A stretch of DNA of 64,000 nucleotides from an uncultured delta proteobacterium (GTDB lineage Bacteria; Myxococcota_A; Polyangia; Fen-1088), in contig CAVWIP010000011.1 of NCBI GenBank assembly GCA_963755125.1, positions 73,304-137,303 of the forward strand, read 5' to 3'. Shown piece after piece: positions 7,689-31,313 of the stretch. The position numbers and the translations under genes are program-made. Within the stretch, counting starts at the first letter, position 1. Every line of letters begins with the position of its first letter. The notes under the pieces are model-generated. The model worked only from the letters and a program-made list of their open reading frames with translations. It was not told the DNA's origin and did no database searches.

Positions 7689-9272
7689 ATGCACACTTCC
7701 ATCCGCACGCACGTTGGTTCGAAAAACTCTGGCTGTCTCTTCGGTCTGGCCTTGCTCGGCATGCTCGGCGCCTGCACGGGGCGGAGCCCGGGCAAGAGCG
7801 TGGAAACTTCGCAGGAAGCGCTCACCGGCTCGTTCGCGATCTCGGGCGCGGTGACATCGTCGAAGGGTCCTGTCGTGGGTGCGACGGTGAAATTGGCAGG
7901 GTCGGAATCCCGGACTGCTTTCTCCGATGCGACCGGGCACTACTCGATTCCCGGGCTCGGCGTCGGCAGCTATCAGCTCTCGGCGTCCGCCAGTTCCACC
8001 TGCACGAGCTCGACGGTGCCACTCAACAACATGAACGCCAGCGTGACGGTCGACCTCGGATTGACCGGGACCGGCTGCGCATCGTTCGTCGGGGTGCTCG
8101 GGCCGACCGGTCCGGCGGGTCCGGCTGGTGCGCAGGGAAAGACTGGCGCGACTGGCGCGCAGGGGCCTGCGGGTGCGATCGGGCCCGCGGGTGCGGTCGG
8201 ACCTGCAGGTGCGATGGGACCTGCGGGTCCGCAAGGCGTTCCGGGCGTCCCGGGTCCACAAGGAGCCCCTGGGACTCCGGGGGCAGCCGGGCCTCAGGGC
8301 GCAGCAGGTCCGGCAGGTCCGGCAGGTCCAGCGGGCGCAGCCGGCCCGCAGGGCGCGACAGGTCCGCAGGGTCCGACCGGCCCCTCGGGAACTGCGACAC
8401 CACCACTCGTGGTCATTGGCTCAATGAGCTTCGGTACCTTGGTGACCAGCGCGCCAATCCGCACGTTCAGCCAGCGGGTGGACGTTCCGTGGGGTCTTTC
8501 CGGGCCAACAGGACAGGCGCAGCTTTCCGCGATCCAGATCAGCCGCGACACCGACGTCTCGAGTCCGAACCTCGCCCTCATCGCAGCGAACCAACAGGCG
8601 ACTTCCACGGCGCAAATCGTACTTGCCGGGGGCGCCCTTACCATCGGGTTGACCAACGTCATTCTCACTCAGTTCAGCACCGATTCGACCCAGGATGGCG
8701 CGCCCATCGAGCAGCTCACGCTGATCTTTACCAAGGAAACCTGGAGCTACGGCTCGTCGACGGTCACCTACGACCCCTCCTCGGAAAACGGCGGCAGCGG
8801 CGGCGGCCCCGTGGGCCCCAAGTTCGTGTTTTTCGGTCAAGGCGTCGACCCAAGCAGCTTCTCAAGTGAAACCCCCTTCTCCAAGCTCGTCATGTCGCTG
8901 ACCAGCCCGACCGGCACCGGCCCGGGTTCTGGCTTGGCCGGCAACACGGTATTTTCCCCACTGACGCTGGTAACCGGCGTTTCTGTGCAGACGCTTAGCG
9001 AGTTGGGCGCCGCCTTACGCCAGACCACCACTCAAGCTGTGACTGCTCATTTCACGGCGCTCGACAACAACAACGCGATCGTCGATCGCATGCGGTACGA
9101 CATGCAGAACGTTCAGGTGAGCACGGTGGCGATCGACACCGCCCCGGACGGAACGCTCCAGGACACCGTGGGATTCCAGCCTGCCAAGATCACGTGGACC
9201 GCGCAGTCACTCACCGGCGGTCCGAATGTGACGACTACGTGGAACATCGCCGGCGGGGGCCCAAGTCACTAG
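7689..9272 (+). CDS. Lipoprotein: carboxypeptidase-regulatory-like beta-sandwich + collagen-like triple-helix repeat (32 G-X-Y) + two tandem Hcp(TssD)-like domains
   Basis: Signal/lipobox LLGMLGAC|[36 protein letters not shown] resembles a CarbopepD_reg domain. Uninterrupted [10 protein letters not shown]...GPTGPSG run (aa 138-234). C-terminal segments align to Hcp motifs: [19 protein letters not shown]..., [13 protein letters not shown], then a second copy ([10 protein letters not shown] ... [11 protein letters not shown]). Confidence 0.75.
8100..8390 (+). repeat. Coding collagen-like G-X-Y triplet repeat (32 consecutive triplets)
   Basis: Gly at every third residue for 97 aa, with Pro/Ala/Gln-rich X and Y positions. 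Confidence 0.9.
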
Positions 9273-20009: not shown

Positions 20010-20353
20010 GGGTTTTCCTTCTGTACTTCTGGACAACGTTGACGCTGAAACTGCCCCACCTGGCACCAAGCCCGGCCTCGCGCACGCCTCAATCATACAC
20101 GAGATAAAGTGAAACGCGCGGTCGGGCCGGGGCCGGCGGGGCGGTGCGCAGGGGTCATCTGATGTGTGGCGATTGTTGAAATTTCCACCCGCAACCGGCA
20201 CGGCAGGCTGTTGCCCGGGCCATCGGCTGATCTCGACCACCTGATCCCTGGCGTCATGGGCGGTGCCCAGGACCCTCGCCGAGGGGCTATCCGCGCCTTC
20301 GTGTCGCGTCGGAGTTGTGCCCGTCGCACTTGCCGGGTACGTTACTGTCGCCG

Positions 20354-22864
20354 ATGGTTCCCCCAGATTCTTTCCCGGCCCGCTATTGCCGTTTCGTCTC
20401 CCGCCACGCCGGCACAATCTTGGCCGTGGCATCCGTGTTGTTCGTCGTCGCCGCGCTGCTGGCCTCTCGCCTGGAGCTGCGCACATCGTTCTCCGAGTTG
20501 TTGCCCAGCGACGATCCCGGCGTGGTGGCTCTGACCAAGACACAGGAGCGCATGGGCGACATGTCCTTGCTGCTCATCGGCGTACGCTCGCCCGACCGCG
20601 ACGCCAACCTCCGCTACGCCGAGCTCGTGACACGCAAGCTGCAGGCCCTGCCCAAGAACGTGGTTGAGTTCGCCGCCTGCAACGTGCGCGATCTGCGCTC
20701 GTTCTTCAAAGAGAACAAGTGGCTGTACGCCAGCGAGGACGATCTGATCGAGATCCGCGACCGTTTGCGCCGCGAGATCACCAAGCGCAAGAATCCCTTG
20801 CTGGTCGATCTCGACGACGACGAAACCGTCGAGCAGATGAAGGACCGCCTGACCAAGCGCGACTGGTTGAACGACCGCTTCCCCGACGGTGTGTTCAGCA
20901 ACAAGGACGGCAGCTACGTCTGGGTGGCGGCCCTGCCGCCCGGGGGCGTGTTCGGCGAGCGGGCCGGCGAGGCCATCTTCCAGGCGGCCAACCAGATCAT
21001 CCGGGACAACGACCCGCGCAGCTTCCACCCCGAAATGCTGGCGCACGTGGGAGGCCCGGTGGCCACCCTCATCGCCACGCGCGCGGCGGTGGAGCGCGAC
21101 ATCCTGTGGGTCACGGTCACCTGTCTGCTCATCGTGGCCGCCTCGCTGTGGGTCTTCTTCCGTCGTTTCCGCGCCGTGCCCCTGGTCGGCGTCTCGGCGG
21201 TGATTGGCTCGGTCATGGCTTTCGCCATGGCCGAGTTGCTCTTCGGCTACGTCAACTCGTCGACTGCGTTCCTCGGCTCGATCATCCTGGGCAACGGCAT
21301 CAACTACGGCATCATCCTCATCTCGCGCTACCAGGAACTGCGCGCCGAGGGTCTGCCCGCGCCGCAGGCACTGGAGCAGGCTCTCGCCGGCGTGATGCGC
21401 GGCACCGGGGTGGCGGCGGTGTGCGCGTCAGCCGCCTACGCCACGCTGATGCTGACCAGCTTCCGCGGCTTCTACCAGTTCGGCGTGATGGCGGCCTTCG
21501 GTCAACTCTTTTGCTGGCTGCTCACCTTCACCGTGTTGCCCGCCCTGTTCCTGGTCATCGACCGCCGGGCCTCCGCAGAACGCGCGTCCGATCGGCCGCC
21601 CATCAATTTCGCCTTCTTGCGACCGCTGCTGGCCCAGAACCCCGGCGGTGTCACTCTGGTCGCCGCCGTGCTCACCGTGGTGTGCGGCTACGGCGTCCTG
21701 CACTTCGTGGACGCGCCCTTCGAGTACGATTTCCGCAAGCTCAACGCGAAGCTGGATTCCACCGAGGATGACAAGGCGTTCAACCGCAGCATGGAATCTC
21801 TCTTCGGCCGGTGGCCTTCCCCCACCATCGTACTGGCCGATTCACGAGCGGAAACCGAATCTATCCGCCAGGCCATCAAGAAGCAGGATCGCGCCACCGG
21901 CGACAAGCAGGTGATCGGTCAGATCGTCACCGTCTATGATCTTCTGCCGGGCACGCCCGAGGTGCAAACCCGCAAGCTCGATCTGCTGGCCAAGATCCGC
22001 AAGCTGGCCCACGACCCTGCCCTCGACGTGCTCACCGCCGACGAACGAAAACAGATCGATGCCGTCGATCCACCCACCCGTCTGCACCTGCTCACCCCAG
22101 AGGAGCTGCCGGCGCTGGCGCGGCGGCCGTTCACGGAAGCCGACGGGACGGTGGGCCGCGTGGTGCTGGTCTACCCGGTCGAGGAGAACTTGTCGGTGTG
22201 GAATGGCAGGGATCTTCTGCGCATTGCCCGCGTCCTGCAGGTGCTCCACCTCGACGACGAACACAAGACCATCGACACCTCGGGCAGCGCAGTGGTCTTC
22301 GCCGCCATGATTCGCTCGGTCCTGCACGACGGCCCACGCGCGACGGCCGCCGCCCTGCTCGCGGTGCTGCTCCTGGTTCTGCTCATCATGCGGCCCCTGT
22401 CGTCCGCGGGCGCAGCCATCGCCACCCTGCTTCTGGGCGTGATCTGGATGCTGGGCGTGGCGGGCCTGTTTGCCGTCAGGATCACCTTCCTGAACTTCAT
22501 CGCTTTGCCCATCACCTTCGGCATCGGCGCCGAATATGGTCTCAACGTGGCCGTGCGCTACCGGCAGGATCGCGACATGATCCGCGCGGTGATCTCCACC
22601 GGCGCGGCTGTGGCGGTTTGCTCGTGGACCACCATCGTGGGCTACGGCTCGCTGCTGGCCGCGCGCAACCGGGCCTTGCAGGGGTTCGGCGCCATGGCCA
22701 TTCTGGGCGAGCTGGCTTGCATCAGCGCGGCGATCCTGGCTTTGCCTGCCACGCTGCTGTGGATCGGCCGGCGCCGGCACCCACATGGGAACCCTGACAG
22801 GGTTCCCATACCCTCCCGCGATGGTGCGCCCCCGGCTAAGCCGGCGGGCTCCCCACGCGACTGA
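20354..22864 (+). CDS. MMPL/RND-superfamily membrane transporter
   Basis: Two 6-TM blocks with large periplasmic loops; about 836 aa. The track start at 20315 is a TTG; the first ATG is at 20354. The last 27 codons are supplied by repeat unit 1. Confidence 0.7.
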   Translation: MVPPDSFPARYCRFVSRHAGTILAVASVLFVVAALLASRLELRTSFSELLPSDDPGVVALTKTQERMGDMSLLLIGVRSPDRDANLRYAELVTRKLQALPKNVVEFAACNVRDLRSFFKENKWLYASEDDLIEIRDRLRREITKRKNPLLVDLDDDETVEQMKDRLTKRDWLNDRFPDGVFSNKDGSYVWVAALPPGGVFGERAGEAIFQAANQIIRDNDPRSFHPEMLAHVGGPVATLIATRAAVERDILWVTVTCLLIVAASLWVFFRRFRAVPLVGVSAVIGSVMAFAMAELLFGYVNSSTAFLGSIILGNGINYGIILISRYQELRAEGLPAPQALEQALAGVMRGTGVAAVCASAAYATLMLTSFRGFYQFGVMAAFGQLFCWLLTFTVLPALFLVIDRRASAERASDRPPINFAFLRPLLAQNPGGVTLVAAVLTVVCGYGVLHFVDAPFEYDFRKLNAKLDSTEDDKAFNRSMESLFGRWPSPTIVLADSRAETESIRQAIKKQDRATGDKQVIGQIVTVYDLLPGTPEVQTRKLDLLAKIRKLAHDPALDVLTADERKQIDAVDPPTRLHLLTPEELPALARRPFTEADGTVGRVVLVYPVEENLSVWNGRDLLRIARVLQVLHLDDEHKTIDTSGSAVVFAAMIRSVLHDGPRATAAALLAVLLLVLLIMRPLSSAGAAIATLLLGVIWMLGVAGLFAVRITFLNFIALPITFGIGAEYGLNVAVRYRQDRDMIRAVISTGAAVAVCSWTTIVGYGSLLAARNRALQGFGAMAILGELACISAAILALPATLLWIGRRRHPHGNPDRVPIPSRDGAPPAKPAGSPRD

Positions 22865-23024
22865 CATGGGAACCCTGAGAGGGTTCCCATACCCTCCCGC
22901 GATGGTACGCCCCCGGCTAAGCCGGCGGGCTCCCCACGCGACTGACATGGGAACCCTGAGAGGGTTCCCATACCCTCCCGCGATGGTACGCCCCCGGCTA
23001 AGCCGGCGGGCTCCCCACGCGTGA
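22784..23024. repeat. Three tandem 81-bp direct repeats, each containing two hairpins (GGGAACCCT-N3-AGGGTTCCC and CCGGC-TAA-GCCGG)
   Basis: Units at 22784-22864, 22865-22945 and 22946-~23024 are about 95% identical. Each ends in GACTGA, so each unit closes the MMPL reading frame. Confidence 0.9.
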
Positions 23025-23057
23025 CACGAATGGATTCGCTGCCGCCTTCGGGCTAGA

Positions 23058-23513
23058 GTGCCGGTCATGCACAAGAAGGTGGAATCGGGGCGTCAGAGTT
23101 CGGATGCGAAGCGGAAGCGGTCTTCCGACGCGCGCCAGACGCACGCCGGCGCGCCCAACTCTGTGACCGAAGGCTCTCTCACGGAGACGACTGCAGCGGG
23201 CACTGTGGCAAGGGAGCCATGCACCAAGATCCGTTGCAAGGGCGCCACCCGCTACGGCGATCCGTGCCGGTTCTGGGCGCTGGCCGACAGCGAGTTCTGC
23301 TACTGGTGCGAGCAAGCGGGACGCCCCCGGTACCCCTTGCCTGTGCCCACCGGCGAGGCCGCCCGCGCCGCAAGCATCAAGGAGATCCACAAGAAGCGCT
23401 GCCAGGGCGTCACCGTGTTCGGTGACCAGTGCCGCTTCTGGGCCGTGGGCTTCAGCGACTACTGCCTGTGGTGCGCGGCCTCTCAGGCCGGGCCGGCGGC
23501 GACCGGCACCTGA
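23058..23513 (+). CDS. Small Cys-rich protein with internally duplicated C-x-G...GD(P/Q)CRFWA...(F/Y)C(Y/L)WC motif (putative zinc-ribbon)
   Basis: Two copies: CTKIRCKGATRYGDPCRFWALADSEFCYWC and RCQGVTVFGDQCRFWAVGFSDYCLWC. The N-terminus is basic. Confidence 0.45.
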   Translation: MPVMHKKVESGRQSSDAKRKRSSDARQTHAGAPNSVTEGSLTETTAAGTVAREPCTKIRCKGATRYGDPCRFWALADSEFCYWCEQAGRPRYPLPVPTGEAARAASIKEIHKKRCQGVTVFGDQCRFWAVGFSDYCLWCAASQAGPAATGT

Positions 23514-25781: not shown

Positions 25782-27509
25782 GTGGCGGCCGGGGGAGGGA
25801 CGACTATGTTGATGCGACTCATCCATCAAACTGCCCTGGTTCTGGCAGCCGCAGGCACGGCAGCCTGCTCAAGCACTGAGCAGTCGGCGATGAATCCGGA
25901 CGCCGGGCCGGGGGTCGTCACCACGCCAGGCAGCACCACCATGCACGACTTCACCTCGGTCAGCGCAGGTGTCTGGCACACTTGCGGCCTGATGACTGAC
26001 GATACCGTGGTGTGCTGGGGGACCGCGAACTTTGGTGAGGCCACGCCACCCCAAGACACCTTCATCTCTGTCAGCGCGGGTCAGTTCTATACATGTGGCC
26101 TGAAGACCGACGGTACCATTGCCTGCTGGGGCGACAACACCTACGGCAAGGCCACGCCGCCCGCGGGAACATACACCTCCGTCAGCGCGGGTGAGTTCCA
26201 CGCATGTGGCGTGAAGACCGACGGTACCGTTACCTGCTGGGGCGACAACACCTACGACGAGGCCACGCCACCCACGGGAACCTTCACCTCTGTCAGCGCG
26301 GGTGAGGCCTACACATGCGGAGTGAAGACCGATGGTACCGTTGCGTGCTGGGGCACGGACTACTTCGGCGAGACCAAGCCGCCCAAAGGCACCTTCACCT
26401 CTGTCAGCGCAGGTTCTGACCACACCTGTGGCCTCAAGACAGGCGGCAGCGTTGCCTGCTGGGGCAACAACACCTACGGCCAATCATCACCGCCCGGAGG
26501 CACCTTCACCTGTGTCAGCGTTGGCGACCTGTTCACGTGCGGCGTGAGGACCGACGCAACCATGGCGTGCTGGCCCGCCAACACGCTCAGCGCATCCACC
26601 TCGCGTCCAGGCACGTTCACCTCTGTCAGCGTCGGGGTATTTGACACATGCGGGGTGAGGACCGACGGAAGCATCTCCTGCTGGGGCGACAACCAGCACG
26701 ACGAAGCCACGCCGCTGCCAGACCCTCTGGTGTCCCTCAGCGTGAGTGAGACGCACAGGTGTGGGGTGAGATCTGACGGTACCGTCGCATGCAACGGGGA
26801 CAACTCCAGCGGTGAAATCGCGCCGCCAGATGGGACGTTCGCGTCGGTCAGCGCGGGCTCCTTCTTCACGTGCGGCGTGCGCACCGACAGCACCATCGCC
26901 TGCTGGGGAACGGGCTACCCCAACGGCGATGCCGCCAAGCCTCTTCCAGGAACATTTTCGTCCGTCAGCGCAGGTACCGGAGACACATGCGGCGTGAAGA
27001 CCGACGGTACCGTCGCTTGCTGGGGCGACGACATCTCCGGCCAAGCCGTGCCGCCCGCTGGCACCTTCACCTCCGTCAGCGCCTCCGCTGGAGGCGAGTT
27101 GGGTGGCTTTTATGCCTGTGGCGTAAGAACCGACGGCACCGTCGCCTGCTGGGGCGACAACACCAAGGGTGAGTCCTCGCCACCCGCTGGCACCTTCGCC
27201 TCTGTCAGCACGGGCTGCGAGTCCACGTGCGGCCTGAAGACCGACGGTACCGTGGCCTGCTGGGGCGACAACACCTACGGCCAATCCTCGCCGCCCGCTG
27301 GCACTTTCACCGCCGTCAGCGCGGGTTGCGATTTTGCGTGCGGCCTCAAGACCGACGGAACCATTGCTTGCTGGGGCGACAACACCTGGGGCGAATCATC
27401 GCCGCCGACTGGCACTTTCACCGCCGTCAGCGCGGGACTCGGCTACGCGTGCGCGCTTGACCAGAACGGCATCACCGTCTGCTGGGGTGCGGATCGGACA
27501 GCCCCATAG
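25782..27509 (+). CDS. Lipoprotein composed of ~13 tandem RCC1-like ~41-aa repeats
   Basis: Repeat unit (S/T)VSAG..(H/Y)(T/A)CG(V/L)KTDGT(V/I)ACWG(D/N)NTYGQ..PP.GTFT. Signal/lipobox LAAAGTAAC|SS. Confidence 0.75.
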   Translation: MAAGGGTTMLMRLIHQTALVLAAAGTAACSSTEQSAMNPDAGPGVVTTPGSTTMHDFTSVSAGVWHTCGLMTDDTVVCWGTANFGEATPPQDTFISVSAGQFYTCGLKTDGTIACWGDNTYGKATPPAGTYTSVSAGEFHACGVKTDGTVTCWGDNTYDEATPPTGTFTSVSAGEAYTCGVKTDGTVACWGTDYFGETKPPKGTFTSVSAGSDHTCGLKTGGSVACWGNNTYGQSSPPGGTFTCVSVGDLFTCGVRTDATMACWPANTLSASTSRPGTFTSVSVGVFDTCGVRTDGSISCWGDNQHDEATPLPDPLVSLSVSETHRCGVRSDGTVACNGDNSSGEIAPPDGTFASVSAGSFFTCGVRTDSTIACWGTGYPNGDAAKPLPGTFSSVSAGTGDTCGVKTDGTVACWGDDISGQAVPPAGTFTSVSASAGGELGGFYACGVRTDGTVACWGDNTKGESSPPAGTFASVSTGCESTCGLKTDGTVACWGDNTYGQSSPPAGTFTAVSAGCDFACGLKTDGTIACWGDNTWGESSPPTGTFTAVSAGLGYACALDQNGITVCWGADRTAP

Positions 27510-29279: not shown

Positions 29280-31313
29280 CTACTCGCGCATCACACCGGA
29301 AATCCGCACCCGCGCCCCGGCCGCCACGGGTTCGGAGCTCTCGACGATGACCGCGTCGCCGGCATCCAGGCCCTGGGTGATGACGACGTCGGCGGCGGTT
29401 CGGTCAGCCACCGCCACGCTGCGCGCCTCGGCCCGCCCGGTCGGCGCCACCAGCAGCACGCGATCGCTGTCGCTCACGCGCGACAACGCCGAGGCCGGCA
29501 CCAGATACGCGTCGGCCAGACGCGCGCGTGCCAGACGCGCCCGTTGTCCGGCTGCCGTCGCCGCTTCCGGCGCCATCTCGATGACCACGTGGGTTTCGTC
29601 ACCGCCGTCGGAGGCCAGGCTGCAAGCTACAGCCCGTCCCTCGATTTCGGCCACACAGAAGCCTTGCTTGCGAACGCGCGCGGCCTGCGTGCGCGGCAGC
29701 TCGAAGTTGGCGCGCCAACCCGCTGATCGCAGGCGCACCGCCGGCGCGCCAGGCCGCACCGTCTGCCCCAGGGTGGCCAGCGCCGCCTCGATCTGGCCCG
29801 AGCCCTGGGCCACGACCGCCACGCGCGACAGGGCAGCCTGCGTCTGCCCGACCAAACCTGCGTTGAACTCGACCTTGGCCCGCGCCGCGCTGGCCCGCTT
29901 GTCGTCGCCCGCGTCGGTCGCGGCCAGTTGCTCGAAGTGGGCGAGCCGTTCCTGCAGGCGGGCCAGATCGGCCAGCAGCGAGCGGGCCGCGTCGGTCGCG
30001 GCCACCACATCGCCAGCCCGCAGCGAGATCCCCACGGACGCGATCTGGATCACCTTGCCGCCCGCAGGGAAGCCCAGCACCTCGCCAGGCAGCTTCTCCA
30101 CGGGCGCGGTGCCGTCGAACCAGCGCACAACAGCGGTTGGTTTGGCGACAAGGACGCGTGTGCGCACGGCCGGAGGTGGTTGCGTGTTCACCGCCCATGG
30201 CACCACCAACGTGCCCACGCCCAGGGCCGCCAGGGTGCCGAGCACGGCGTGGAGAATCCATGGGACACCCCGCCCTGTCGTGGGCCGCGCGGATACCGGC
30301 GTGACATAGGGAGGAGGTGTCACCAGCGGCGGCGGGGTCAACATTCCACGGGGGCCTGGCGTCAATGTGCGGGCTTCGCCCCAGACACCGCGCGGCCGCC
30401 CGGCGCCGTCAGCAGTTTCAGCAGCAGACGTGCGACCACGGGGCGGCCTCTCCCGCAGGGGAGGCGGCGTCCGCGCTTCGAGCGGAATCGGAGGTGGGGT
30501 CTCGGCCAGCAGGGCAGAGGGTAGCGTTTCCATCGCGACCGGCGATGGCTCCTGCACCGACGGGCTGACCGGCGACTCAGGAGGCACCTCGACCGGCGCG
30601 GCAGCCGCGGCCGGCAGCGACGGCTGGGCCTGCGACAGAACGTCGGGCTGCGGTGTCGCCACTGTGGGCGTCTCGGCCGTGGGCAGAGCATCCGAGGACG
30701 GCGTGGCGGCCGATGCCGTCTCTGCCGCCGGCGGCTCAGGCTCCGCCGCAGCCGGTGGCGATTCCGGCGCAGGAGGTGGCTCGAATGACGCCGGGCCTGG
30801 CGTGGGCGCACCGTTGTCAACGGGCTCGGGTTCCGAAATGACCGGCACTGGCGTCTTTTCAGCCGCGGGTTCCGAAATGACAGGCACCGGCGTCTTTTCA
30901 GCCGCGGGTTCCGAGATGACCGGTACCGGCGTCTTCACGTCCTCGGGTTGCGACGGAGCCGGCGTCTGTGCGGCCGCCGCGGTCATGCGCGTGATGTGTG
31001 CCGGCCTATCCTCAGGCGCAACACCCGGAGTTCCTGCCTTGCCCGACACCAGGAAGCCGAGCTGGTCAAGACGATCGGCGAATGCCATGAGTTGCTCGAC
31101 CGTCAGCTCCAGCCCGGTCGAGAGCCGCACCCAGGCGATGACCTTGCTCAGAGGCCGGCCGTCGAACGCGAGAGCAACCGAATACTCGTAGCCAAAGAGA
31201 CGGAAAGTCGATCCCAGCTTGGGATCGCAGACGTCGACGCACCTGACGCCATCTTCGCTTTGCAAGATGGTCGAAACCAGATCGCGCCGCAAGCGCGGCC
31301 CGTCAAACGTCAT
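29280..31313 (-). CDS. Membrane-fusion/HlyD-like periplasmic adaptor with N-terminal cytoplasmic domain, Pro/Ala-rich repeat linker and single TM
   Basis: TM segment WILHAVLGTLAALGVGTLVVPWAV. The C-terminus has a coiled-coil plus beta-barrel typical of HlyD/biotin-lipoyl-like adaptors. Contains a 13-aa x3 tandem repeat PVPVISEPAAEKT. Confidence 0.55.
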   Translation of the reverse strand: MTFDGPRLRRDLVSTILQSEDGVRCVDVCDPKLGSTFRLFGYEYSVALAFDGRPLSKVIAWVRLSTGLELTVEQLMAFADRLDQLGFLVSGKAGTPGVAPEDRPAHITRMTAAAAQTPAPSQPEDVKTPVPVISEPAAEKTPVPVISEPAAEKTPVPVISEPEPVDNGAPTPGPASFEPPPAPESPPAAAEPEPPAAETASAATPSSDALPTAETPTVATPQPDVLSQAQPSLPAAAAAPVEVPPESPVSPSVQEPSPVAMETLPSALLAETPPPIPLEARTPPPLRERPPRGRTSAAETADGAGRPRGVWGEARTLTPGPRGMLTPPPLVTPPPYVTPVSARPTTGRGVPWILHAVLGTLAALGVGTLVVPWAVNTQPPPAVRTRVLVAKPTAVVRWFDGTAPVEKLPGEVLGFPAGGKVIQIASVGISLRAGDVVAATDAARSLLADLARLQERLAHFEQLAATDAGDDKRASAARAKVEFNAGLVGQTQAALSRVAVVAQGSGQIEAALATLGQTVRPGAPAVRLRSAGWRANFELPRTQAARVRKQGFCVAEIEGRAVACSLASDGGDETHVVIEMAPEAATAAGQRARLARARLADAYLVPASALSRVSDSDRVLLVAPTGRAEARSVAVADRTAADVVITQGLDAGDAVIVESSEPVAAGARVRISGVMRE
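30829..30945 (-). repeat. 39-bp x3 imperfect tandem repeat inside a CDS (encodes PVPVISEPAAEKT x3)
   Basis: ggttccgaaatgaccggcactggcgtcttttcagccgcg repeated three times on the + strand. Confidence 0.85.

Follow-up and report, generated by a model that had tools for sequence, protein, structure and literature searches.

The window analysed here, a stretch of 64,000 nucleotides of DNA from an uncultured delta proteobacterium, contains an MMPL/RND-type transporter gene with an array of three tandem repeat units at its 3' end, followed by a short remnant of coding sequence and a conserved gene for a Cys-rich protein (Table 1). The open reading frame to which the transporter gene belongs (20315..22864) encodes an MMPL-family protein (Pfam PF03176, E=1.6e-37), and the 836-aa product has also been called, identical, in public assemblies; for the 148-aa product of the downstream gene no Pfam match was obtained. 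A second open reading frame (22785..23024, 79 aa) spans all three units in a frame other than that of the MMPL gene, and likewise gave no family match in Pfam.

Table 1. Features of the MMPL gene end, the repeat array and the downstream gene (positions refer to the window)
Feature	Position	Strand	Basis
MMPL/RND-type transporter gene, 836 aa	20354..22864	+	ORF list, translation, Pfam
Unit 1 core, type A, 75 nt, read as MMPL tail	22785..22859	+	
Hairpin 1 of units 1 and 3	22785-22809 and 22947-22971	+	
Hairpin 2 of units 1 and 3	22817-22859 and 22979-23021	+	
Linker ACTGAC, contains MMPL stop TGA (22862-22864)	22860..22865	+	
Unit 2 core, type B	22866..22940	+	
Hairpin 1 of unit 2, perfect 11-bp stem, 3-nt loop	22866..22890	+	
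Hairpin 2 of unit 2, long imperfect CGCG...CGCG, covarying 7-bp tip, RRA-type loop	22898..22940	+	
Second ACTGAC linker	22941..22946	+	Sequence
Unit 3 core, type B	22947..23021	+	
Native MMPL C-terminal codon remnant (TRMDSLPPSG*)	23024..23056	+	Sequence; orthologue tails and DNA compared
Conserved downstream gene, 148 aa, Cys-rich	23067..23513	+	

The initial annotation described three near-identical 81-bp tandem units, and this was confirmed by TRF, which placed the array at 22783..23021 with a period of 81, 3.0 copies, 98% matches, no indels and a score of 464. Each half of the unit occurs three times in the window, always within the array, where shuffled sequence is expected to give 0 matches. 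A unit consists of a 75-nt core, i.e., an 11-bp hairpin and then an imperfect hairpin of ~44 nt, and a 6-nt linker. The type A core of unit 1 has GAC in the hairpin-1 loop and GTG ahead of hairpin 2, and the type B core of unit 2 has GAG and GTA at these positions. The annotated GACTGA end is present in units 1 and 2 (GACTGAC), but not in unit 3, where the terminal CGCG of the core is followed by TGAC and not by ACTGAC. Arrays of 1-4 units, strictly head-to-tail and with linkers of 0-11 nt, are present at many other loci; the array in the window is, as had been noted, not a CRISPR, the units being contiguous with no unique spacers.

Across its copies the element is composed of hairpin 1 (core GGGAACCCT / AGGGTTCCC), a linker rCCCTCC and hairpin 2, which is closed by CGCG and has a covarying tip. 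The stem of hairpin 1, ATGGGAACCCT / AGGGTTCCCAT, is a perfect 11 bp with a 3-nt loop and not 9 bp as first annotated, and the 5-bp stem given for the second stem-loop is just the tip of hairpin 2, which is imperfect and has ~16-17 pairs (CGCG...CGCG). Folding of one unit as DNA gave -27.3 kcal/mol (z = -6.4). The covariation analysis counted 113 double-change cells, where shuffles gave 40.5 +/- 3.8 and slid controls 11-39, and pairs 53-69, 56-66 and 57-65 of hairpin 2 are divided among GC, CG and AU. In an unbiased sample the core of hairpin 1 was conserved and changes at the base of its stem were compensated, and in one orthologous element pair a compensated stem change was seen in situ. The loops are purine-only on one strand, with 0 T in 360 bases of the hairpin-1 loops.

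The MMPL open reading frame runs into unit 1 and terminates there, as initially annotated: the stop lies 77 nt into the unit, which supplies the last 26 sense codons and the TGA. Directly 3' of the array, and in the MMPL frame, are the codons TRMDSLPPSG*, which were severed from the gene by the insertion. Close MMPL orthologues without the element end ...RRRARRMSVDPSLPPG*, and the orthologue tails compared with the remnant are ...RRMSVDPSLPPG* and ...STMDSSTSAG*. Among the orthologues listed, the tail ...HGNP(D/E)RVPIPSRDG..PAKPAGSPR(D/E) is present only in the window protein (P0001) and the 89%-identical P0002, the remaining ones having unrelated short basic tails; P0003, P0004, P0006 and P0043, among the closest orthologues, end in or beside the element or its remnant. 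The comparison of C-termini suggested in the initial annotation thus gave no orthologue that shares the 27-aa tail without the repeat, and most orthologues lack this tail.

The orthologous site is empty in L118, L119 and L123, whereas L115 has one full copy there, L116 a truncated variant and L121 an in-frame fossil. At empty sites the 148-aa gene starts 9-10 nt past the MMPL stop, vs 202 nt in the window. The two best empty sites carry GAC or TCGAC, and both the 5' TYGAY and the 3' ACTAG may belong to either target or element; these filled/empty comparisons comprise ten candidate pairs from genomes that have diverged too far to place the insertion boundaries exactly. Contigs that are >=99.6% identical carry the orders A-B-B (window, L126, L127), A-A-B (L125) and A-B (L128, L124), i.e., 2 or 3 units, and the array therefore varies in copy number, with the reservation that short-read assembly can itself produce differences in unit number. 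The identical three-unit array was recovered in independent assemblies from different samples. As a separate observation, an imperfect direct repeat of 10 nt brackets the L115 copy, a poor fit with a simple IS200/IS605-style insertion.

The proposed search for the unit elsewhere yielded many copies. Hairpin 1 matched at least 114 loci in species-representative genomes, all matches listed being in Myxococcales/Polyangia-type MAGs, and another part of the unit matched at least 120 loci in metagenomes (fen and soil); the element is therefore a dispersed family. The 75-nt core was found in at least 25 species-level Polyangia/Myxococcales MAGs, and 65 of ~108 oriented copies are exactly 75 nt. Stop codons adjoin many copies and gene ends are often overlapped by them. 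Moreover, a second module is nested within some copies and is present or absent among orthologous copies.

In the 5' flank YYGAB is favoured (CTGAT, TTGAC, TCGAC), and in the 3' flank ACTAG/ACTGA. The element ends, ATGGGAACC... and ...CCCCACGCGACTAG, are unrelated and not complementary, i.e., there are no terminal inverted repeats. The check for target-site duplications, also suggested initially, revealed none above chance: long shared flank words were no commoner than in shuffled pairings, and an excess of such words came solely from array-internal linkers. In the absence of both features "REP-like" fits better than "MITE-like". The outcomes of the three suggested checks all favour the original description, in which insertion of a REP/MITE-like element remodels the protein tail, and of this we retain the insertion, the remodelling and the REP-like character and drop the MITE-like one.

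Taken together, we consider it likely that the array represents three head-to-tail copies of a small, mobile, non-coding interspersed repeat spread through genomes of an uncultured Polyangia clade (Myxococcota). The repeat family, from soil myxobacteria that are uncultured, is large and apparently undescribed so far, and the array in the window is a clear yet fairly ordinary case of repeat-driven gene-end remodelling. An ancestor of the window lineage gained one copy about ten codons upstream of the native MMPL stop. Entered in the MMPL frame, the element is stop-free until its conserved 3' GAC-TGA/TAG, so that the cytoplasmic MMPL tail was replaced by 26 element-encoded residues, leaving the native tail codons stranded 3' of the insertion. 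The single copy then expanded locally to 2-3 units, a number that still varies among near-identical strains. We infer that the new tail is a tolerated by-product and not an adaptation, and coupling between the MMPL gene and the closely following 148-aa gene is probably lost through the insertion.

As to how the family spreads or has spread, an enzyme of the HUH/Y1 type (RAYT or IS200/IS605 TnpA) that acts in trans may move the copies as hairpins of single-stranded DNA, which would insert beside a short T-Y-G-A-Y-like motif without target duplication, and arrays may lengthen or shorten via replication slippage or unequal recombination. No Y1/RAYT-like open reading frame was detected with HUH / Y..NP motif patterns in ~1.6 Mb of element-bearing loci, the best tblastn hit in such loci with approximate IS200, IS608 and E. 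coli RAYT queries had E = 0.38, and no parent element with tnpA (Y1) or tnpB sharing the ends was present in the element-bearing loci searched. The genes between two inward-facing copies (L004, L039) are ordinary-looking host open reading frames. It is conceivable, though doubtful, that Myxococcota harbour here a hitherto undescribed class of mobile element based on single-strand hairpins, whose transposase would be neither a recognisable RAYT nor an IS200 TnpA; such a class would combine two dissimilar hairpins, a fixed 75-nt (25-codon) core, stop codons at both ends and array periods that preserve the frame. If so, copies could come to lie at or within gene ends and do little harm there.

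An alternative is selection for a structured RNA that works at the transcript level, be it as a small RNA or as an attenuator, terminator or stabiliser in the 3'-UTR; the array would then adjust how strongly the MMPL gene and its downstream neighbour are expressed. The strong covariation in hairpin 2, the compensated changes in hairpin 1 and the loops constrained on one strand agree with this, as does the position of the array between two genes that are just 9-10 nt apart at empty sites. Moreover, at orthologous sites the element core is better conserved than the flanks, which could reflect a host function rather than mobility. An RNA of this kind is, however, expected to show an orientation bias, and we found 34 sense vs 24 antisense copies relative to neighbouring genes (not significant) and 22 copies between convergent vs 25 between divergent genes, all intergenic types being used equally. 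An antisense bias obtained with a crude stop-to-stop ORF caller disappeared once the set was enlarged and the coding test tightened. The promoter/terminator scan gave neither a promoter nor a terminator-like site, with no T-run 3' of either hairpin, and Rfam at permissive thresholds returned only sub-threshold chance matches to eukaryotic microRNA models, the best of which (a plant model) scored 35 bits vs a 90-bit threshold. The nested second module and the variable copy number also fit a repeat better, and a structured RNA is in our opinion unlikely.

The relation of the core to the reading frame raises the question of a translation-aware element akin to MIRUs, which have been described as mobile repeats with an internal ORF that couples with the adjoining gene (PMC12548453). 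Here a mini-ORF would start at the ATG of hairpin 1 with which the 75-nt core begins, and insertion at a gene boundary would make stop and start overlap or couple, which would explain that the units keep the frame. Frame 0 is indeed stop-free in 118 of the 120 distinct cores, the periods of 18 of 26 independent arrays are divisible by 3 (p = 2e-4), a TGA is often located 2-8 nt upstream of the ATG, and the 3' end of the element carries a stop in a frame other than 0. On the other hand, single copies contain no frame-0 stop, no family matches the 79-aa frame-0 product in the window, copies face either way with respect to adjoining genes, and the covarying stems rewrite the codons (RPRLSRRAPHA v RAEQSSAAPHA) with no conservation of a peptide. 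The co-oriented, coupled internal ORF typical of MIRUs is thus not found, orientations being equal and peptides diverging across the covarying stems, and we regard this explanation as improbable.

A MITE of the classical cut-and-paste type, with a DDE-transposase insertion sequence as its source, would likewise be small, high-copy and intergenic with nested insertions, but with unrelated ends and flank duplication not beyond chance once array-internal linkers are set aside, this origin is very improbable. An origin of the repeat as ancestral coding sequence for a repetitive protein tail, or as an artefact of assembly, is hardly credible: the unit length is divisible by 3 and one ORF runs through all units, but the ancestral tail is refuted by the orthologue comparison with its empty sites, the same unit is present at hundreds of unrelated intergenic places, and independent assemblies agree on the array.

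The preferred reading, a mobile interspersed repeat, makes the locus a natural stepwise record of how a small repeat rewrites a protein C-terminus, in that a single orthologous site is found empty, with one copy, with an array of 2-3 copies, with a truncated copy and with an in-frame fossil. Repeat-derived tails will be part of automated gene calls for these Polyangia genomes, and the lineage-specific repeat is usable as a marker and VNTR locus for uncultured peat/fen Polyangia. Its purine-only loops, covarying stems and periods divisible by three offer a handle on REP-like elements in compact genomes. The current understanding of bacterial repeats is unchanged, and the importance is moderate.

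With respect to known systems, the literature held nothing relevant on the hairpin sequence or on REP/RAYT in myxobacteria. With the palindrome-associated miniature elements derived from IS200/IS605 the element shares asymmetric ends with a hairpin near each and the lack of TIRs and TSDs; the biased short motif (T-Y-G-A-Y) directly 5' of it resembles the TTAC/TTGAT-type target of the IS200/IS605 family. In contrast to these miniatures its two hairpins are dissimilar and no parent IS with tnpA/tnpB was present in the loci searched; with hairpin 1 beginning at the first base, there is no space for a guide segment such as that of IS608. BOX in Streptococcus pneumoniae and BIMEs in E. coli are modular mosaic repeats, the REPs of BIMEs alternating in orientation. 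Modules in variable numbers, some extra and some tandem, are common to these and to our element, which however is unrelated in sequence, resides in another host phylum and follows another module logic. Units of 40-100 bp at many intergenic loci, a strain-variable tandem copy number and a close relation to the stop/start codons of neighbouring genes are shared with MIRUs (PMC12548453), which differ from the element in that the latter has both orientations, strong conserved hairpins and no peptide conservation.

Finally, like REPs and REPINs of Pseudomonas and Enterobacteria, which are mobilised by RAYTs, the element is short, high-copy, mostly extragenic, hairpin-forming and lineage-confined, and it has no TIRs or TSDs. 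As reported for REPINs (PMC3116915), compensatory changes preserve the hairpin and most copies are single, the tandem clusters that do occur repeating flanking bases as well; long persistence at orthologous sites is also common to both. In contrast to a REPIN, in which two inverted REPs form one long hairpin, it has two different hairpins in series; it has no GTAG-type head, its conserved parts being the 11-bp perfect palindrome and the CGCG-closed long hairpin; its arrays are strictly head-to-tail direct repeats; no RAYT was found in the ~1.6 Mb of element-bearing loci with approximate queries; and many of its copies extend over gene ends. The element differs from REPINs in several defining features, and by analogy would appear to work like a REP/REPIN-type single-strand hairpin element.

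A single strong array was found in the window by Tandem Repeats Finder (period 81, 3.0 copies, 98% matches, no indels), in agreement with the three 81-bp units described in the initial annotation, and either half of the unit occurs there exactly three times and nowhere else in the 64 kb, where shuffled sequences predict zero occurrences. The open reading frame that runs into the array encodes an MMPL-family transporter (PF03176, E = 1.6e-37) and ends, as had been claimed, in the first unit: its TGA stop falls in the linker that follows core 1 (75 nt), and the repeat encodes the last 26 sense codons. Some details had to be revised. Specifically, hairpin 1 has a perfect stem of 11 bp (not 9 bp) and a loop of 3 nt, and hairpin 2 is long and imperfect (~16-17 pairs, closed by CGCG/CGCG), the reported 5-bp stem being its tip only; moreover, the third unit ends in CGCG followed by TGAC, such that GACTGA is not the end of every unit. 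Folded as single-stranded DNA, a single unit reaches -27.3 kcal/mol (z = -6.4 vs shuffles).

Positions of the features discussed, in the window or in loci fetched from public assemblies and metagenomes (L numbers)
Feature	Position	Strand	Remark
GC-rich stretch, probably coding and repetitive	8166-8371		overlapping 9/18/36-nt tandem periodicities
MMPL open reading frame	20315-22864
MMPL gene as called in public assemblies	20354-22864	+	836 aa
81-nt array	22783-23021
MMPL stop codon	22862-22864		TGA
Remnant of the native MMPL tail codons	23024-23056		immediately 3' of the array
Conserved 148-aa gene	23067-23513	+	directly downstream of MMPL in most close relatives examined
RCC1-type repeat protein	25782-27509	+	575 aa; PF13540, 11 stretches
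Periodicities of 111/222/333 nt	25949-27487		Tandem Repeats Finder
39-nt tandem repeat	30827-30935		2.8 copies, 92% matches
Same ORF fragment, twice	L012, about 978 and about 4732	-	3.7 kb apart
Element copies adjoining apparent tRNA gene ends	L017:4480-4525; L079:4810-4852; L108:672-720
118-nt tandem duplication	L070:4040-4310		element copy + 43 nt flank
Second module	L043:590-717 v L083:2277-2359		also L001, L027, L030, L036, L039, L056, L062, L067, L070, L084

Other repeats were also noticed (see table). The 39-nt tandem repeat (CGGGTTCCGAAATGACCGGCACCGGCGTCTTTTCAGCCG) has no relation to the 81-nt unit; the RCC1-type protein explains the periodicities across its gene. The ORF fragment found twice in L012 (MADSGSTSTHSCTGTLPSHIHL...) could be either a duplicated gene or a further repeat.

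To follow the MMPL gene end we compared 120 close homologues, and for several the orthologue DNA was fetched and aligned. The tail ...HGNP(D/E)RVPIPSRDG..PAKPAGSPR(D/E) is present only in the window protein and in an 89%-identical orthologue (P0002), while the remaining orthologues listed carry unrelated short basic tails past the last helix (e.g. ...RRRARRMSVDPSLPPG, ...RRTTVGSSLPPG, ...ARRSTMDSSTSAG). Three loci represent empty sites (L118, L119 and L123), in which the gene continues uninterrupted through ...ATG GAT (or TCC GTG GAT) TCG ... GGC TAG; in L118 and L119 the MMPL stop is followed by the next gene after 9-10 nt, and in L123 the next called gene, 56 nt downstream, encodes a different and much longer protein. 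At the same position L115 has one complete element, L116 a truncated variant where the stop (ATG GAC TGA) comes from a damaged hairpin 1, L121 apparently only a ~20 nt recognisable in-frame remnant (tail MEGSIARHSSMPPG) and L122 a 48-nt insert of another sequence, perhaps a decayed copy. In L042, a more distant orthologue, another element array follows the stop directly, and that stop overlaps the hairpin-1 ATG. In the window, the MMPL frame continues 3' of the array as ACA CGA ATG GAT TCG CTG CCG CCT TCG GGC TAG (TRMDSLPPSG*), the persisting codons of the native tail. Since orthologues without the repeat lack the window's tail, empty sites exist and the native codons are in place, the refuting case named in the initial annotation (orthologues sharing the tail without any repeat) does not hold, and its reading of an insertion into the 3' end of the MMPL coding sequence stands. 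The evolutionary series at this one site is unusually complete; repeats at gene ends are in themselves familiar.

From the host's side, the simplest view of the new tail is that of a tolerated by-product, since orthologue tails at this position are short, basic and highly variable. The neighbouring gene encodes a protein with a duplicated Cys-rich motif (C..K.RCKGATRYGDPCRFWA...FCYWC) and no Pfam match. In the window 202 nt of hairpins separate its start from the MMPL stop, compared with the 9-10 nt at L118 and L119, and any translational coupling between the two genes, if it existed, has therefore likely been broken as a side effect.

Independent assemblies 99.6-100% identical to the window across 3.6 kb differ in their arrays of type A (loop GAC + GTG) and type B (loop GAG + GTA) units: A-B-B in the window, L126 and L127, A-A-B in L125, and A-B in L128 (GCA_049686575.1) and L124; in the 89% relative a single unit is present. 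These differences are explained by slippage or unequal exchange inside the array. The two-unit contigs may reflect repeat collapse in short-read assemblies, but at most one of A-A-B and A-B-B could have arisen in that way.

The search for the unit bore out that it is a dispersed repeat. The hairpin-1 pattern with a free loop, scanned against one genome per species, matched at least 114 loci, and part of the linker plus hairpin 2 (CCCTCCCGCGATGGTNCGC) at least 120 metagenome loci. Among the hairpin-1 matches listed all hosts are Myxococcales, Polyangia, Deltaproteobacteria or 'Proteobacteria' MAGs, with fen, peat, permafrost and soil as MAG sources; the first 80 loci cover at least 25 different species-level assemblies. 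After orienting the copies the core is sharply defined: hairpin 1 (ATGGGAACCCT-NNN-AGGGTTCCCAT), rCCCTCC and hairpin 2 (CGCGATGGTnCGC-[7-bp stem]-[RRA loop]-[stem]-GGCTCCCCACGCG), together exactly 75 nt in 65 of ~108 copies. A second sub-family has another hairpin 2 (CGCGCTCTGGCTCCGCCGGGC...) of the same shape. A profile search of the first locus set gave 106 single copies, 20 doublets, 4 triplets and 1 quadruplet, with similar proportions in the pooled ~1.6 Mb. No Rfam family contains the element, and it was not found described in the literature searched.

Gene context was judged by a coding test (open frames and third-position GC). Copies lie between co-directional genes (34 sense, 24 antisense; not significant), convergent genes (22) and divergent genes (25). 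Gene ends are often in contact with a copy: among 128 arrays, a co-oriented gene's stop lies 2-8 nt before hairpin 1 in at least 14, a convergent gene's stop lies inside the conserved 3' ACTAG in 6, and the gene's stop falls within the element in 4, the window and L070 among them. A MIRU-like, translation-coupled mini-ORF is suggested by the ATG start, the 25-codon core, an open frame 0 (read from the hairpin-1 ATG) in 118 of 120 cores and array periods divisible by three (75, 78, 81, 84) in 18 of 26 independent arrays from loci L002-L234, with unrelated linkers (binomial p = 2e-4) and a core nearly always of exactly 75 nt; however, copies are orientation independent and no peptide is conserved.

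The hairpins are structurally constrained. In an alignment of 70 distinct copies the hairpin-2 tip covaries strongly: pair 53-69 is GC 37, CG 26, UA 3 and AU 2, pair 56-66 CG 35 and GC 33, and pair 57-65 GC 46 and AU 23, with 113 double-change cells vs 40.5 +/- 3.8 shuffled and 11-39 with slid partners. Hairpin-1 invariance in the first sample was an artefact of the search pattern; in the sample ascertained via hairpin 2 the hairpin-1 core (GGGAACCCT/AGGGTTCCC) is conserved, with compensated changes at the stem base and in some inner pairs (TCGGG..CCCGA, CCGGG..CCCGG, TTGGG..CCCAA, GGGGACCC/GGGTCCCC, GGAAACCC/GGGTTTCC). Where orthologous sites are both filled, core identity is 92-99% vs 79-90% for the flanks, most differences lie in loops, and in one pair hairpin 1 has changed in situ with compensation. 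On the element strand both loops are made up of purines, save for 39 C among the 360 hairpin-1 loop bases (G 192, A 129, T 0); hairpin-2 loops are nearly all A and G. This asymmetry holds in either genomic orientation, an indication that one particular strand takes a single-stranded form. Covariation, loop constraint and conservation would all be explained by a selected RNA element; difficult to reconcile with it are the equal frequency of both orientations and of every intergenic type and the absence of a T-run and of an Rfam match.

Flanking bases are biased, to YYGAB on the 5' side (CTGAT, TTGAC, TCGAC...) and to ACTAG/ACTGA/ACTAC on the 3' side. The filled/empty comparisons span diverged genomes and are unclean; in the two best pairs (L131/L049 and L115/L123) the empty site already contains GAC or TCGAC. 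The L115 copy is flanked by ATCGAcATGG and ATCGAgATGG, and empty sites have one such stretch. Copies have no terminal inverted repeats, and flank comparison gave no target-site duplications above chance, so that of the label 'REP/MITE-like' the REP-like half fits better and a DDE-type MITE is excluded. Ancestral coding sequence is likewise excluded (the tail has no counterpart in most orthologues listed, and empty sites exist), as is an assembly artefact by the tests in this analysis. Some copies adjoin apparent tRNA gene ends (e.g. ...GGTTCAAATCCAGTCGCCCCGACA), and of L017 and L079, which share one tRNA-like sequence, one has the element next to it and the other lacks it.

A second GC-rich module, ~45-65 nt long (...CGAGGGCGCGCGCGAAGCGCGCGGGGTGGGCAGGGTGGGCTGTCCGTCCCGAAG...), is found in some copies, within the hairpin 2 loop or, in reverse orientation, between both hairpins. 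Its presence in one and absence from the other copy of an orthologous pair (L043/L083) with flanks 94-97% identical gives it the look of a small mobile module in its own right. In the L070 duplication only the second copy has the nested module; hence the duplication is older than the event that made the two differ, either insertion of the module or a deletion.

What the data show is a dispersed hairpin repeat that inserted into the MMPL 3' end, where its conserved 3' GAC-TGA/TAG supplies a stop in the frame entered, and an array that has expanded and contracted locally. In REP/REPIN and IS200/IS605-derived elements an HUH/Y1 enzyme acting in trans recognises single-stranded hairpins, and the elements insert beside a short motif without duplicating it. 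The family studied here appears to behave likewise. By this likeness, an HUH/Y1 enzyme acting in trans would handle the single-stranded hairpins, and insertion beside a short motif would leave no duplication. The weak point is the enzyme: crude tests, blind to a single-copy gene elsewhere in the genome, revealed no recognisable Y1/RAYT ORF in ~1.6 Mb of element-bearing DNA. The overall interpretation in the initial annotation, a repeat remodelling the MMPL tail, was right, and the finding is real.

REPINs are defined by an inverted REP doublet, a GTAG head and a RAYT. The element seems to work like the REP/REPIN type, but it has neither of the first two, and no RAYT was seen in that ~1.6 Mb. 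For REPINs, published work describes compensatory changes, a majority of single copies and tandem clusters in which flanking bases are included (PMC3116915), which matches the compensatory changes, copy classes and array variation of our family. Like MIRUs, the family shows VNTR behaviour and lies close to stop codons; like BOX and BIME elements, it is modular. We file the element among the lineage-specific interspersed hairpin repeats, a kind already known; the features worth following are its unit of two hairpins, its purine loops specific to one strand and its arrays that preserve the frame.
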